64,000 nucleotides of DNA from Eledone cirrhosa (Eukaryota): contig OZ024743.1 in the NCBI GenBank assembly GCA_964016885.1, forward strand, positions 359,414,001-359,478,000, written 5' to 3'. Under the pieces are notes generated by a model, which saw only the letters and a program-made list of their open reading frames with translations, made no database searches and was not told where the DNA came from. Made by a program: the position numbers and the translations under genes. This document shows positions 891 to 52,863 of this stretch, one piece after another. How positions within the stretch are numbered: position 1 is the stretch's first letter; each line of letters begins with the position of its first letter.

Positions 891-3876
891 ATTTTAATTT
901 TCCCAACAGGTCATTGCAATTGTCCTATTACCACTAATGCTGATTACAATCTATGATTCGTGAATGTATCATCAGTGTTTATACTTCGTTACATTATACT
1001 GCAGGTGATCATTAAGTTAAATCTCATGTGAAGCTGTTATTTCTACTTCTCTCGGTACAATTGTCATCTATTTCAATAAGTCTTTACCAACACCCTACAA
1101 TAATAAATGCTATAGGCAGATTATATTTTTGTTAAAACAATACTACAAAAGTCTATGTAAGATGGCGGATGCATATAGTTTTGGGGAAAATTCATCACTG
1201 ATTAAAACCAAACATACTGTGTGTTCGAGTTTCTATGGCAATTCATTTCTTCACGTTGACAGAGCATATTTGCACATGCCAAGAAACAGAGTGGTCTATC
1301 AAGTAGAAGAAAACATATGACAGTTTAATTGGCAATTAATTTGCCACCATATTGTCCTAATTAGATATGACATAACACAAGGAATATAGCACAATCCTTG
1401 TGTTTTTTATTGTAAACACTGAATATATACGAACAGATATTTCAATAAAGCGAAGAGATTTCTATTGCGGATAAAATAAAAATATAATAAATAAGAAAGA
1501 AATGTTTGAAATGAAAGAGAAAGAAAAGAAATTAGAAAATATTGAGAATATGCGATAGTTAATATCAAATTGATATGACTCATTGAATGAGAAAATTTGA
1601 AATTTTGAGGGCTAAGGTCAGTCATGGAGTAAATTGGACAGCACTTGAGAATTGGTCGTTAGATTTTTGAAACAACAGCAAACAACTTGTGAACAATTCG
1701 ATAGAAATAATAAAGCTGTTTAGAAATTTTAATTATTTCCTTTCACTCTCAATGGAATGGGCTACATCTGTTTAACATCACATCACGAGCGTAATTTACA
1801 GTGTAAAGTACATATGACATAAAATAACACAGCATGCGATTATTGTCAATAGCATCACTTATTTCATAGTTGTCATATTAGGATTTCAGAATCAGTTGAA
1901 TATCGTAGAAAATAGCTTTCTTTGTTTAGATTGCGTTCGAAGATGTTCAGTAGTTCAAATCTCACTAATGCCATTCACTTTACTGAGGTTTGCCATTCAC
2001 TTTACTGAGGTTGATAAAAATGAGTACTATGTGAGGAGAAATCGGTATAAATTTGATTTTCATTAAGCATTATTTTGATTGGTTCGTTCGATTTCGTTTT
2101 GGTAGTGCTTTTTATGCTGGCATTTTTTTCTTACGTTTGTATTATTTTGTATTTCTTTTTCTTTTTAATAAAGATGAAAAAAGATTTTAATCACAGATGC
2201 GTATTTTTATCTATTTGGATTTCTTCAAAATAATGTGAAACCATAAATGTTCTTTCTTTAAAGTAAGGAAACGATATTTCAATTCTTAGACAGGTAGATA
2301 GATAGCGAAAGAAATAGTGGGAGAAAGAACATATACATTAAACAACAGGTAAATTCCCTGTGCCTTAAAACATCTTTGTTTTCAAAAATTAGACACAAAG
2401 AAAATGAACGACAACATAATGACTTTAACCCCTTTCTCCCGTTAGGTCCAAGAAAGCAGTAGCGAAATCTAAAATCACGAACGCTTCAAGCCTTTACAAA
2501 AATCACAACGCCTAAAAACTAAGACTAAATGAACCATTGCATTAACCAAATTGAATAACTTGTCGTACATACTGATAAATCCTCGGATTCTGAAAACTAG
2601 ATAAAATCCCTTTATATTTAAAAAAAGCTCAAGTGAAGCAGTTTCACATAAACGCATCAAACCTATGATCAAAATCCTTCCAGTCTTAACCGTCCCATAT
2701 TATCTACGATTATATTAACTAATATTTTATGTTATTTTTTTTTGGGGGGGGGGGGGGTGTACATGATTTGAAGAATATTTAACTACTATTACTAATAGAT
2801 CAAGATACAACAAACAAGTTTCTTTATTGGCTTGAATTCCCTTATCATGGTTGTTGTTTGGTCCTAATTTAGCCGTAAACCATTATCCAGTGTGTCTTCC
2901 TTTGTGTGATTTTAAAGAGACTTAGCAGCTCTTTTCTAACAGATCATGCGACAACTTATCAGGCTCGCTTATTGGCTTGAAATTCCCTAACGGCTCTCAT
3001 TGAAAAAATTATAACGATTAAAGTTAGCAGAACTGCAGCAGAGTGATCTCTGAAATCTGGGAAATTATTGCTGACACAGCATATACTGATGCGCAGGAAC
3101 ACGTTGTTTAAGCCTGTAAATGTCAACAGTAACTGTTTGTTTCTATTTCAATTAGATATCATATTCACATGTTGACTTCAATTAACAAGATTCAAGAATC
3201 CGAGTTAAATCCAGGAACCCCAAAGAATTAACTCCAATCTGCATTACAGAAATAATTTTTGATGTCCACACCATAAAAACTACGAAATTCCTGTACTTCT
3301 ACTTCAGAAGAAAAATAGTGACTTTTCATATTTTTCTCCCTATTAATTCACAATTTTGAAATTATTATCAATTAAATTTATTGTTAAAGGAAGACAGTTT
3401 TGGAAACAACAGATATTTATAACAAATCGATCAATGGGCCGAATACGTTGAGAAAAATATCTGAGAGAGCGAAACTGAATACCGTATAGTCCTCTGTTAA
3501 AGACGCCCCCGCCATCCCCTCAAATAAAGAAATTTGACGTCAAAATCTGCTTACATCTTATACACCGAAGACATGAATATAATGATAATAATTGAAGCGA
3601 GAAACTAGTAGTGTCTTTAACATCACAAACGTGTTTGAATTGGTTTATACATATTGCGAGATCACAGCTCCGATACTATGGGCAAGTGGTTAGAATGTCC
3701 TAGGAAAGATTGGCTGGGCAGATTTTACGTGCAAAACCAGCCGAGATGAGACCCAGGTGGGCGAAGAAGAGAATATATATATATATAAGATAAGTTATTC
3801 CGGGTTGAGTCGGAGGTAACCACAGTGAGTAAGGTACTCAATACATAGCAGAGTATAGCGGTTTTAATTTTAGAAG

Positions 3877-3927
3877 AGCTTCTACAGGACTAGAACTGTT
3901 TCATTCGTGAGAAATCATCAGGAAGCT
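3877..3927 (-). ncRNA. Type I hammerhead ribozyme, family A
   Basis: Reverse complement: agcttc CTGATGA t-ttc-tcac-gaa-t GAAA cag-ttctagtc-ctg TA gaagct; full core with stems I, II and III. Confidence 0.85.
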
Positions 3928-4804
3928 GGCTGTCCAAATAAGTGGTAGTATTTATATCTTTCCTTTTCTGGTGGTAGGAGAGGGTGGGGGTTGGGATGGG
4001 TGGAGTTTCATTCGTTGAAGGATTTAAAGAAAAGGGAGTTCATTAGAAGCTAATTCTTTAAAGCTATAATATTAACAAAGGCAGAAAAAATACTGTAAGC
4101 AAATTCAAAATTGAAATACCAATCCTTGTTTATCACTTAGACTAACAATGCCTGTAAGATGGATGGGTGGGATCCAATGGTTTAAAGAAAAGGGAAATTC
4201 TTTAGAAGCTAATTCTTTAAGGTTGAAATAAGTGTGACAAAGGCAGAAAGGGTTCCTTCAACAGATTCAAGTGTTGGGGTGAACCCCCATATTGTGAAGT
4301 TACACTTAATATATATTCCAGGTGTCGACAGGCGCATTCATACACGCGCCCACTTACACACGTACGCACACATACACCCCCGCACACACAGGCAGGCACA
4401 CACACAACAAACATACATAATGGTACATACACACATAGATATATACAAATATATATATACACATATACATACATATGTGTACATACATATACATATATAT
4501 ATACACATACACACACACACACACACACATATATATATATATATATATATACATACATACACATACATACATATATATACATATATACACACACACACAC
4601 ACACACATATATATATATATATATATATATATATATATATATATACACTATATATATACAATATTATAGCTTTAAAGAATTGGCTTTTAATGAACTCCCT
4701 TTTCTTTAAATCCTTCAACCAATGACCTCCACCCATCCCAAACCCCACCCTCTCCTACCACTAGAAAAGGAAAGATATAAATACTACCACTTATTTGGAC
4801 AGCC

Positions 4805-50602: not shown

Positions 50603-50670
50603 CTCTGTCTGACGACCGATCCAGACGTATATTATTATTGTCTGGGATGCAGAAACCTTTGGTAATGGAG
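50603..50670 (+). ncRNA. Type I hammerhead, family H
   Basis: ctctgt CTGACGA cc-gatccagac...gtctgggat-gca GAAA cctttgg TA atggag; 50465-50705 is inverted relative to 47170-47410. Confidence 0.75.
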
Positions 50671-52863
50671 TAGTTATATTTTGTGTTGTTCACTTTCTAA
50701 TTAAATACCTCTGTTCTATACATAGAGCACTCTTTTTTCCTTTGCTTTTCCTTTGGAATTACCTAACACACACACACACACACACACACACACACACACA
50801 CACACACACACACACACACATATATATATATATATATATATATATATTGTCTTTAACGCGTTGAAATATCCGAGACCCCCAGTAGACAACTGATGAGGAA
50901 CCGCCCTCCCCCCGTTCTTGCTTTCATCTTATTCTTATTCCTATTTTTAAGCTTACCTTCACTAGCAACTACACAGCCATCCTATTCTCCATATATATTT
51001 CATCATGTTTCGCTGTCACCCGTCTTCTCTCTCCTTCTACCTACTTATTTCTTTGCTATCTACTTTTATCCCTCTCCCTCTCTCCCTCTCACTTTCACTC
51101 ATCCTCTCTCTGCCAGTCACCTTATTGTTTCCATCGCTTGACCCTCTAGAGTCCTTTTCTCACTTACACTCGCCGGCGGGTCAGACGTGTCTTTTCGTTC
51201 GCCCACACGCTCTTGAACTTACGTTCAGCTAACGATGTGGACTTGGATTTTCTTACTTTAAGTTGCTCGCACATTCTTTGGTTTGTTATTTTTTTTCGAT
51301 GTTTTTCTCTTTTCTTCCTTTTTTTCCCTTTCCCTTCTATTTTCCTTCCCTCTTTCCTCCGTTTTCCCAATAACTTACCCAGTTATTGAACGCTCTGGGG
51401 GTAGATATATTGTCTTTAAAGCATTGAAATATCCGAGACACCCCAGTAGACAACTGATGAGGAAAACTCCCCTCACCCATTCTTGCTTTCACCTTATTCT
51501 TATTCGCTTTTTAAGCCTATATATATATATTTATATATATAAATAGTGAAAATGAGACAAAGAGAGAGGCAAAGAGTAAAGGCAATGAGAAAACGGTGCA
51601 TCCACATTATTAAAAAGAACAATAAAACGGATAGAAAGAAGACGAAAGAATTGGTCATGGTGATAGTAAACAAACACAAAAACGTAAATATCGAAAATTA
51701 CCTGGAACTGAGTGTGTGTATATATATATATATATAGAGAGAGAGAGATAGATAGATATATGTGAGTGTGTGTGTGGTGTGTGTGTGTGTGTGTGTGTGT
51801 GTGTGTGTGTGTGTGTGTGTGTGTGTGTGTGTGTGTGTGTGTGTGTGTGTGTGTGTGTGTGTGTGTGTGTGCGCGCGTGCGCGCGTGCGTGTGTGTGTGT
51901 ACGTGCATGCAAAAATAAACAGGGAAACAATACAGTACAATTAAGATATATATTAGTTTAACGCTTGATATAGTAGGAAAAGAGTCTTACTGTTTTGGAC
52001 GTTTGTCTTTTATCAGAAGATATAATGAAAGATACAAGAAGAAATAGAAATAGACGAGGTTAAGAAGAAAAGGAAAACAATATTTTGGACAGAAAGCGCT
52101 TGCGTGTTTAGTCAGCCACACACACACTCGCACACACACATACACACACCCATATACACACACACACACACACACACACACACACACACACAAACTCACA
52201 TATGTATATATATTTACATATATAAATATATACATATATATATATATATATTGTACGCGTAAGCATGCGTGTGTGTATGCATCCATCTACTCAAACATAC
52301 ACATATACATATAGTGTTTCGTTTGTAGGATTTACCTCGCGATTAACAAAAAACCCGAAAGAAACAAACAATAAATACAAACAAGCGATTCTATTGGCAC
52401 TAATATTGGAAATGGGGCACAAAAACAATCATAATAATAATCTACAGTAATTGATATTTTTGTTCCAGTAGATAATCTCTTTCCTGAAATTGGTGAGATT
52501 GAAAGTTACATTTACAACAAATTATACTATAGTATTTTACAAGAAAATAGCAAGAAATTCACACACACACAACGACACACACACAGACACACAAACAGAC
52601 ACACATAGAATCTACATTCGTAGGTTTCGACGATGTGAGTTTCAGTTGATCAACGGAACAGCCTGTTTCTGAAATTATGTAGTTGAGCTTTTCATAGACT
52701 CGTGTACACTTAACGTAATACTCAGGGTGATTCAGTGTGACACAGTATGTGACAAGGCTTGCCCTTTGAATTACGAGTAAAGTCCATCCGACGGCATTCC
52801 TTTTAAACTGTTTATCGAAATTTTATTTACAAGGCATGGGTCCACCTGATGTTATGATAAATA

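Follow-up and report, generated by a model that had tools for sequence, protein, structure and literature searches.

A usually doubled hairpin just outside the copy ends of putative Hydra-clade Penelope-like elements in Eledone cirrhosa

Hammerhead modules, hairpins and coding parents

The window, i.e. the whole stretch of DNA analysed, comprises 64,000 nt from Eledone cirrhosa (GCA_964016885.1, contig OZ024743.1, 359,414,001-359,478,000, forward strand). It contains hammerhead-bearing modules, a broken GIY-YIG coding region and copies of a short hairpin (Table 1). An earlier note had placed this hairpin 20-50 nt 3' of the hammerhead in six dissimilar families, and all six hairpins (A, B, D, F, I and H) were found, at most 2 nt from where they had been put. 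The hairpin is indeed downstream, but measured from the predicted cleavage site its CTC is 29-58 nt further 3' (A 29, F 30, D 43, I 43, H 44, B 58). The position of the hairpin is thus tied to the insertion ends and not to the ribozyme. The six families are not fully independent, with H and I matching at 74-83% over the tail and F matching the solo family G at 88-90% over the hairpin. Among the sites previously taken for solo terminal fragments, the hairpins at 48502, 48604 and 48861 do lie in tail fragments, but the site at 24060, with CTA in place of CTC, belongs to a palindromic insertion as its long arm, and those at 11760 and 47536, while keeping the hairpin, are minimal long+short insertions with an inverted stub of 4-5 nt. 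Four members were missing from the earlier list, 42213-42259(-), 53426-53451, 53542-53563 and 53953-53978. The window hairpins are the first (HP1) of the two found in full-length elements and lie inside what is known as the PLE 'tail', with a canonical second hairpin (HP2) present in family c7. The idea that family D forms the 3' end of the element with the GIY-YIG region at 14274 was rejected, the window copy of D being nested within the TA repeat in the 3' region of that element.

Table 1. Hairpins, insertions and coding remains in the window.
Feature	Position	Strand	Remarks
Family A HP1, long arm	3834-3853	-	Hammerhead core 3898-3921 on -
Family A short partner arm	4660-4870	+	Ends 7 nt before hairpin position
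Family B HP1	11441-11461	+	Hammerhead core 11333-11375; long arm ends in (TA)n near 11525
Family G minimal insertion	11714-11789	-	Tail with HP1 11760-11784 and short inverted stub of short end; (TA)n at either side
Broken Hydra-type GIY-YIG coding region	14274-14987	+	CxCX5C linker; shows Hydra clade in window
Family D HP1, 1-nt bulge variant	16498-16518	+	Hammerhead core from ~16425, mutated in this copy; HP1 unscored by model R1
Family G palindromic insertion	24013-24566	.	Long arm on -, short arm on +; HP1 24059-24083(-) damaged, CTA for CTC; short-arm hammerhead core non-canonical
Family F HP1	34390-34414	+	Hammerhead core from ~34278; long arm ends near 34459
Coding long+short pair	42177-43841	.	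Long inverted arm on -, with long-looped hairpin 42213-42259; on +, a GIY-YIG fragment at 42566-42826; short arm ends ~43838 in (TA)n
Family H short arm	47171-47381	-	Hammerhead; stops just before hairpin position
Family G minimal insertion	47519-47607	+	Palindromic centre; tail with HP1 47537-47561
HP1, H-like tail fragment	48502-48523	+	
HP1, second H-like tail fragment	48605-48626	+	
HP1, I-like tail fragment	48862-48883	+	
Family I palindromic insertion	49076-49338	.	Short arm on -, ends 7 nt before hairpin position
Family I HP1, long arm	49279-49300	+	
Family H HP1, long arm	50709-50730	+	Hammerhead core 50609-50656
Family c7 tail	53426-53563	+	Variant HP1 53426-53451 (TTC/GAA, compensatory) and canonical HP2 53542-53563 (CTC/GAG), 9 nt past point where sister copy ends (54059)
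c7 copy, variant HP1 (TTC/GAA)	53953-53978	+	Hammerhead core 53817-53845; long arm ends 54059 in (TA)n

Judged from sequence, and going beyond the earlier note, the hammerhead modules are the pLTR/5'UTR ends of Penelope-like elements (PLEs) of the Hydra clade, which are predicted to code for protein and sit in (TA)n. Copies of families I, G, D, H, A, F, B and K continue into an ATG and a Hydra-type ORF. Family G has an intact 716-aa ORF within a 3542-bp tandem unit, and this single ORF holds an RT with YRDD plus, at its C-terminus, a GIY-YIG endonuclease (VIY..YIG). Pfam left the 716-aa ORF unmatched and gave a weak GIY-YIG match (E 0.0099) to the window fragment. When translated, G, I and the window fragment show a CxCX5C linker, no CCHH, and CxxC and CxH around conserved E and N. 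RWK/RWR and SDKT motifs are present in I, G, A and D; likeness to Hydra-1_Obim was judged by eye. Type I hammerhead cores, predicted to be ribozymes, are found in the pLTR of A, B, D, F, H and I; the core of family G is non-canonical in 12/12 copies examined, and the hammerheads gave no Rfam match at gathering score. Of 353 mapped ends from six families, 275 adjoin a microsatellite, mostly TA. The ORF motifs, the pLTR hammerhead, the (TA)n targets and the inverted 5'-truncated copies are all shared with the Hydra clade of C-terminal EN+ PLEs in the available text of Craig et al. (2021, PMC8557442). Short hammerhead repeats derived from PLE pLTRs, as here, also occur as non-LTR retrozymes (bioRxiv 10.64898/2026.07.22.740005; PMC4209133). 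However, retrozymes are non-coding tandem arrays whereas the hairpin families here are truncated inverted insertions with coding parents, and identity with non-LTR retrozymes was rejected, as A, B, D, F, G, H and I run into ORFs.

Enrichment, structure and doubling of the hairpin

Across the whole window the loose pattern is weakly enriched, with 30 matches against 15.8±4.5 in 100 shuffles (maximum 31). Downstream of 92 hammerheads in 1.18 Mb of unselected DNA the enrichment is strong: the loose motif was found 19 times, against 0 upstream, 0.5 in shuffled sequence and 1.5 expected from random 110-mers; the corresponding values for the structured motif were 15, 0, 0.16 and 0.5. An antisense control at these hammerheads gave 9 loose and 4 structured matches because the motif is near-palindromic. 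The structured canonical motif was absent from 11/22 multi-copy hammerhead clusters in the same DNA; of these 11, two have a TTC/GAA variant and a further one matches loosely.

In structure the motif is a stem-loop with a bulge and covarying pairs, R-CTC-Y..loop..R-TN-GAG-Y-RCT. The covariation appears only with a 2-nt 3' bulge in the model, and was then seen in 52/63 cells against 33.1 permuted for 21 hairpins of this genome, which were chosen by eye, and in 96/129 cells against 65.4 permuted for 43 foreign hairpins chosen blind to inner pairing. Pair 13-28 is C-G in 26 cases and U-A in 14 and is broken in 0/40, while the outer pair is A-U in 12 and G-C in 6 of 21 in this genome and G-C in 43/50 abroad. 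TTC/GAA stem variants exist. At positions -7 and -6 relative to the stem, the spacer bases most often seen are T and A, respectively (0.76/0.62 here, 0.60/0.52 abroad). Predicted triplet pairing was poor in B2, K1, c19 and B1 (0.00-0.27), the family A HP1 folded no better than its shuffles (z -0.6) and RNAalifold did not recover the inner stem, keeping only four invariant pairs. Rfam gave 0 matches at gathering score, its sub-threshold matches being microsatellite or palindrome miRNA noise; of 237 such weak matches, the best 150 included none that fell on a hairpin. No description of the hairpin was found in the literature covered, subscription papers, Repbase/Dfam notes and theses lying outside that coverage. 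The available text of PMC8557442 neither describes the hairpin nor links it to ends, and the word 'hairpin' is absent from its main text.

The hairpin might be nothing but functionless residual homology among related pLTRs, given that all carriers belong to one clade and that H/I and F/G are visibly related. However, the identity of the anchored flanks is 0.29 against near-invariant stem positions, and the proteins of the hairpin-bearing families are only 28-52% identical. The stem shows compensatory changes, and the hairpin is conserved from coral and sea cucumber consensi to Eledone cirrhosa. The covariation and flank tests thus contradict this explanation, to which we give almost no credence. 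With enrichment over random sequence, compensatory pairs in own-genome and foreign hairpins, and conservation in excess of the flanks all present, the earlier proposal of an unannotated cis signal near the element end, whether for RT recognition or for 3' processing, is supported, and the earlier note's own alternative of shared ancestry without such an excess fails.

What that proposal did not include is that the hairpin, with its fixed 2-nt bulge, is usually doubled and lies just 3' of, i.e. outside, each copy end. Full-length elements usually carry it twice, as HP1 and HP2, between the hammerhead and the AUG. HP2 starts 7 nt beyond the long end in I and G, 9 nt in D, B and c7 and 11 nt in H. 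Its loop ranges from 10 to 89 nt, and thus it is the stem base, not linear distance, that tracks the end. A canonical HP2 was not found in family A, where only a remnant, TAGCACTCT, is left; long ends are present nonetheless. The HP2 of family B is degenerate (GCG for GAG), and that of family F is the TTC/GAA variant, in one copy (L028); a CTC-type HP2 in F was rejected, the pattern search having given 3 chance-like matches.

Metagenomic Hydra-like loci carried at least one hairpin in 27/28 clusters and two in 22/28, at a spacing of 46-83 nt, while control searches gave a hairpin in 6/112 ORF windows and 67/1400 shuffles. Several foreign 3' ends too halt 7-11 nt short of the hairpin. A model built from foreign sequences alone recovered 10/12 of the earlier note's sites, 6 of them at E<0.01. 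Of the six published Hydra consensi (PMC8557442), three have the canonical hairpin, Hydra-2_Amil, Hydra-2_Ajap and Hydra-1_Ajap (twin, before ATG), and a fourth, Hydra-1_Crog, has variants.

Copy ends and possible modes of initiation

Inserted copies end at two sharp sites, ~7-11 nt 5' of HP1 or HP2. In unselected DNA, 99/110 microsatellite-abutting ends were at these two sites. For families I, G, D, H, F and B, 255/275 such ends fell in two 16-nt windows making up ~32 of 280 scoreable positions, the 78/353 ends that do not abut a microsatellite being left out of this mapping. Head-to-head pairs in unselected DNA were long+short in 30 cases, long+long in 1 and short+short in 1, with 10 more having an unclassed arm. 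A larger count of inverted pairs gave 81, 5 and 2, with 41 more unclassed; many loci were fetched for a long arm, and of all the counts only the unselected ones are free of that bias.

The structure, conservation, doubling and position of the hairpins and the long+short pairing of the arms are shown by these data. In the element RNA the hairpin is likely, at a probability of about 0.65 as judged from these patterns, to be bound by the RT-endonuclease and so to set where it initiates internally, at two starts. The protein would bind HP1 and HP2, probably as a dimer, which is also the prediction for the anole PLE, and both strands of the (TA)n target would be nicked by the endonuclease. The UA-rich spacer 5' of one hairpin would be the priming site for each freed 3' end, and the two cDNAs, usually 5'-truncated, would join head to head to give one short and one long arm, the extra 'tail' corresponding to the HP1-HP2 spacing. 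A start directed by a hairpin would leave that hairpin uncopied, which would explain why long arms alone contain HP1 and why HP2 is confined to tandem or full-length copies. Against this reading stand the long ends of family A despite its lack of a canonical HP2, the degenerate HP2 of B, the absence of the motif from many hammerhead families, the poor predicted pairing in some hairpins, the weak sense-strand bias and, in the anole PLE, a start site without target homology and a dissimilar, AC-rich stem-loop. We put forward tentatively, as a version that may well prove wrong, that the RT dimer uses the two identical hairpins of each transcript as a ruler, with one subunit on each and one strand of the (TA)n break for each. 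If so, the PLE tail and head-to-head insertions would be explained in one step, and a ~100-nt tag could send any RNA into TA microsatellites.

The spacers 5' of the hairpins are TA-rich and HP2 is close to the ORF (14-50 nt abroad, with a median of ~22 nt from the end of HP2 to the AUG). The hairpins could on these grounds be 5'UTR translational operators or packaging signals, which the ends adjoin only because TA-rich spacers anneal to the target. This is very unlikely, as the leaders are AT-rich throughout and yet the ends concentrate at two sites beside the stems. An operator or packaging role could coexist with the initiation of RT at the hairpins.

A nuclease that measures would account for the fixed offset from the stem base no less well than an RT that does so. 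The hairpin would then be a 3'-processing or termination signal, with the RNA cut or released ~7-11 nt upstream and the RT starting at the new 3' end as in LINEs; given its non-canonical hammerhead core, family G may need some other processing route. However, the first site and HP1 are intact in the long arms, and in the anole PLE the protein initiates at internal positions of uncut RNA and primes little from the 3' end (PMC11167929), making such processing quite unlikely.

The hairpin could also act as DNA, either by folding in single-stranded cDNA or by marking a cut or resolution by the GIY-YIG endonuclease or a fold-back stop of the second strand, in which case at least one end would be a cut or stop point and not a start. 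The available text of Craig et al. (2021, PMC8557442) ascribes the tail to EN-mediated resolution, the Drosophila tail is reported to be needed for EN recognition (as cited in the available text of PMC11167929) and self-priming has been proposed for palindromic junctions (PMC3846280). The sense-strand bias in the foreign hairpins is weak (G-U 9 against A-C 5), and the strict long+short pairing is also compatible with a one-template fold-back route. We nevertheless consider a role in DNA unlikely. Both ends stand at the same offset from one kind of hairpin, and HP2, being missing from the long-arm cDNA, cannot act in that cDNA. A site in double-stranded DNA is disfavoured by loops of 7-89 nt with inner covariation, and in vitro it is at the tail ends that the RT of the anole PLE starts (PMC11167929). 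Initiation on the RNA thus remains the preferred explanation. A short RNA element that is doubled, covarying and clade-wide, and that keeps a fixed offset from both ends, allows the mechanism to be tested directly with a few mutations and offers a structural target for a telomerase-related RT. The hairpin is also a diagnostic for annotating Hydra ends, missed here by Pfam and Rfam.

Relation to known systems

An RNA structure recognised by the RT fixes the start of copying in the stringent LINE/R2 3' stem-loops and in the template-positioning elements of telomerase RNA. In LINEs and R2 the signal is located 5' of the start and becomes part of the copy. In contrast, the hairpin here, in its proposed role, is 3' of the start, uncopied by that start and doubled.

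Internal initiation is described for the anole Poseidon element PAc, where both target strands are cleaved and extended and the tail is bounded by a pair of internal starts (Frangieh et al. 2024, PMC11167929). PAc resembles the initiation proposed for the present elements in its use of both target strands, in these two starts, 3' of the hammerhead, and in a protein-binding region near them (PMC11167929). In PAc the start site lacks homology to the target. The study, the one carried out in vitro, mapped the two starts without finding a conserved signal (PMC11167929). The PAc stem-loop is AC-rich, single, inside the ORF and contains the starts, with no CTC/GAG motif in the available text (PMC11167929). 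Here, unlike in PAc, there are two hairpins in the 5'UTR upstream of the ATG, each 3' of its end and with TA-rich spacers.

The PLE 'tail' is described, in the available text of PMC8557442 and PMC3846280, as an optional extension of 30-40 bp, and the origin of the tail and of the inverted copies is called undefined in the former. Here too, the tail is an extension that one of the arms in an inverted pair may carry. However, unlike the known tail it measures ~67-94 nt, holds a conserved structure and matches the two-hairpin spacing in length. The family G unit, at 3.5 kb, is also longer than the usual Hydra element of <3 kb in the available text of PMC8557442.

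Hammerhead modules and their parent elements

Parents of the hammerhead modules (families A, B, D, F, H and I of the earlier note, with others labelled here) were sought in the 3.0 Gb genome as copies extending beyond the usual end. Past that end, families I, A, D, H, B, F and K and the solo family G run into an ATG and an ORF with marks of the Hydra clade of Penelope-like elements (PLEs), namely RWK/RWR, DKT and CxCX5C with CCHH absent, as listed by Craig et al. (PMC8557442). The family proteins are 28-52% identical to one another, and a 3542-bp tandem unit of family G contains an undamaged ORF of 716 aa. 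Because the families continue into ORFs with these marks, by which the clade was assigned, the modules are on sequence grounds the terminal-repeat (pLTR)/5'UTR ends of coding Hydra PLEs; the same continuation rules out independent non-coding families.

The hammerhead core of family G was non-canonical in all 12 copies read (locus L331 and others; window 24466-24550), with both CTC/GAG hairpins between hammerhead and AUG, HP1 and HP2, intact. Such a core despite an intact ORF, tandem arrays and both hairpins suggests that the ribozyme is dispensable and the hairpins not.

Hairpin structure and distribution

The six hairpins and solo fragments of the earlier note were found in their places, with corrections. 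Of 25 own-genome hairpins picked by eye, 21 were kept after removal of the close relatives H1, F1, H2 and c16, giving the consensus R-CTC-Y-NN-loop-NN-R-TN-GAG-Y-R-C-T. The first Y of the GAGYRY motif first described pairs with the base preceding CTC (A-U in 12/21, G-C in 6/21). Inner pairs were formed in 52/63 cells against a permutation mean of 33.1, and none of 20,000 permutations was as high, though these and the later pairing permutations ignore relatedness and are not exact probabilities. Inner pairing requires a 2-nt 3' bulge, offsets of 0, 1 and 3 giving chance levels. The covariation and excess conservation that the earlier note would have required are thus present, anchored flank identity being just 29%; residual homology is a most improbable account of the hairpin.

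Because the own-genome set was hand-picked, the test was repeated on 77 foreign, metagenomic Hydra-like loci. In 54 of these, forming 28 clusters, the sequence ahead of the ORF was 100 nt or longer, and hairpins were chosen there by a rule blind to inner pairing. At least one hairpin was present in 48/54 loci (27/28 clusters) and two in 38/54 (22/28 clusters). Inner pairing was 96/129 against 65.4 ± 4.9 permuted (43 of 50 hairpins, loops of at least 9 nt). In a 40-row alignment, whose four outer pairs are invariant by selection and so uninformative, the first inner pair was C-G in 26 rows, U-A in 14 and broken in none. A covariance model built from the foreign rows alone recovered 10 of the 12 sites of the earlier note, six at E<0.01, and missed the family D site and the damaged copy at 24059; it added two new window sites and gave 26.5 bits to the family F HP2, a TTC/GAA variant.

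The loose pattern was weakly enriched across the whole window (30 matches against 15.8 ± 4.5 in shuffles). A lone match at 6259-6277 (covariance model E 2.4, no hammerhead near) is likely chance. Enrichment beside hammerheads was measured in 1.18 Mb of unselected DNA, taken as 118 pieces of 10 kb (98 across chromosomes, 20 flanking the window). A finder blind to family detected 92 hammerheads there; it is strict, and mutated cores, in the window those of D, F and G for example, escape it. At a distance of 10-120 nt, 19/92 had the loose motif on their downstream side and none had it on the upstream side (shuffles 0.5); the structured version was downstream of 15/92 and upstream of none (shuffles 0.16).

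In all families the hairpin 3' strand forms, together with the bases that follow it (GAG-YR-CTC), a perfect or near palindrome, and HP1 and HP2 have identical stems; swapped HP1-HP2 pairing or RNA dimerisation is therefore possible. In family K (L184, about 2116-2341) three hairpins precede the ATG, with ends before the first and third.

Copy ends and a possible mechanism

Copy ends fall at two places, each 5' of a hairpin stem: short ends at HP1 and long ends at HP2. For six families, ends abutting a microsatellite lay at most 16 nt 5' of either stem in 255 of 275 cases, a count that left out 78 ends without an adjoining microsatellite; in unselected DNA 99/110 such ends were at the two places (41 short, 58 long). 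The distance from the long end to the HP2 start stays at 7-11 nt with HP2 loops of 10 nt and of 89 nt alike. Head-to-head pairs joined a long to a short arm in 30 of 32 classed pairs in unselected DNA, about 16 being expected from independent choice, and in 51 of 56 classed pairs at selected loci; 41 pairs had an unclassed arm. In the foreign elements inspected as examples (L339, L343, L350, L363 and L403), the ends fall at matching offsets. The cis signal proposed in the earlier note is a real, clade-wide, covarying and doubled Hydra PLE element, set at a constant distance from the two ends of the insertions. The window shows every insertion form.

Insertion forms in the window
Form	Position	Remark
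Palindrome	24013-24566	
Palindrome	49076-49338	
Minimal insertion, 4-5 nt stub	11714	
Minimal insertion, 4-5 nt stub	47519	
Coding pair	42177-43841	
Copy of family c7 extending into HP2	53542	neighbouring c7 copy ends 9 nt short of the HP2 position (54059)

In the anole PLE, as reported in PMC11167929, both target strands are cut and extended, the protein is a predicted dimer, and two internal RNA start sites coincide with the ends of the tail, the extra stretch of the long arm. Structure, conservation, doubling, offsets and long-short pairing are observed here; in the favoured reading, each hairpin would dock one RT, with the start set immediately 5' of it, a TA break would be primed from both strands and the two cDNAs would then be joined head to head. 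Spacers 5' of the hairpins, own and foreign, tend to begin with TA, and a nicked (TA)n end could pair with them briefly. A DNA-level cut or stop signal is unlikely, though the foremost of the alternatives; an RNA processing signal is a little less probable again. A role in translation or packaging, the hairpins lying ahead of the AUG, would make the clustered ends incidental and is distinctly improbable. Several observations count against the favoured reading, among them the hammerhead clusters described below that lack the motif. The RNA-strand bias of the hairpins is slight, several hairpins fold weakly, and RNAalifold did not recover the inner stem. Family A has long ends yet no canonical HP2, and HP2 of family B is degenerate.

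Two satellite units built from tail pieces were seen, one of 183 bp that spans the family I sequence between HP1 and HP2 inclusive and one of 30 bp from the family D tail, tail-piece satellites lying at L215-L219 (C2, about 169.70 Mb) and at C4 80.50 Mb.

Other hammerheads, published consensi and further window features

The structured canonical motif was absent from 11 of 22 multi-copy hammerhead clusters in the 1.18 Mb sample, two of the 11 having the TTC/GAA variant and one a loose match. The remainder may belong to other clades, including a 436-bp tandem family (34770, 44233 and 49597). This family occupies 34631-35083, 43939-44966 and 49355-50091, its units being arranged both in tandem and as inversions. 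A long, plain stem-loop follows its cleavage site; the family lacks the CTC/GAG motif, has no linked ORF and is retrozyme-like.

Published work already covers the Hydra clade and its hammerheads, as well as the tail and internal initiation; no description of the CTC/GAG hairpin was found in the literature searched. It can be read in the published consensi Hydra-2_Amil, Hydra-2_Ajap and Hydra-1_Ajap (twin) and, as variants, in Hydra-1_Crog. The consensi of Hydra-1_Amil and Hydra-1_Obim stop short of it at their 3' ends, and it was not seen at the start of Hydra-1_Obim.

Elsewhere in the window, a small G+C hairpin with CTAG and TA repeats behind it (23950-23980) resembles a Helitron 3' terminus in shape. 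It ends a 3-kb repeat that has an inverted copy at 6975-9923 and contains 173/177-bp G+C-rich tandem repeats (8760-10380 and 21000-22660). A Cys/His-rich open frame of 208 aa at 35713-36339, for which Pfam gave no match, is probably a transposon fragment.
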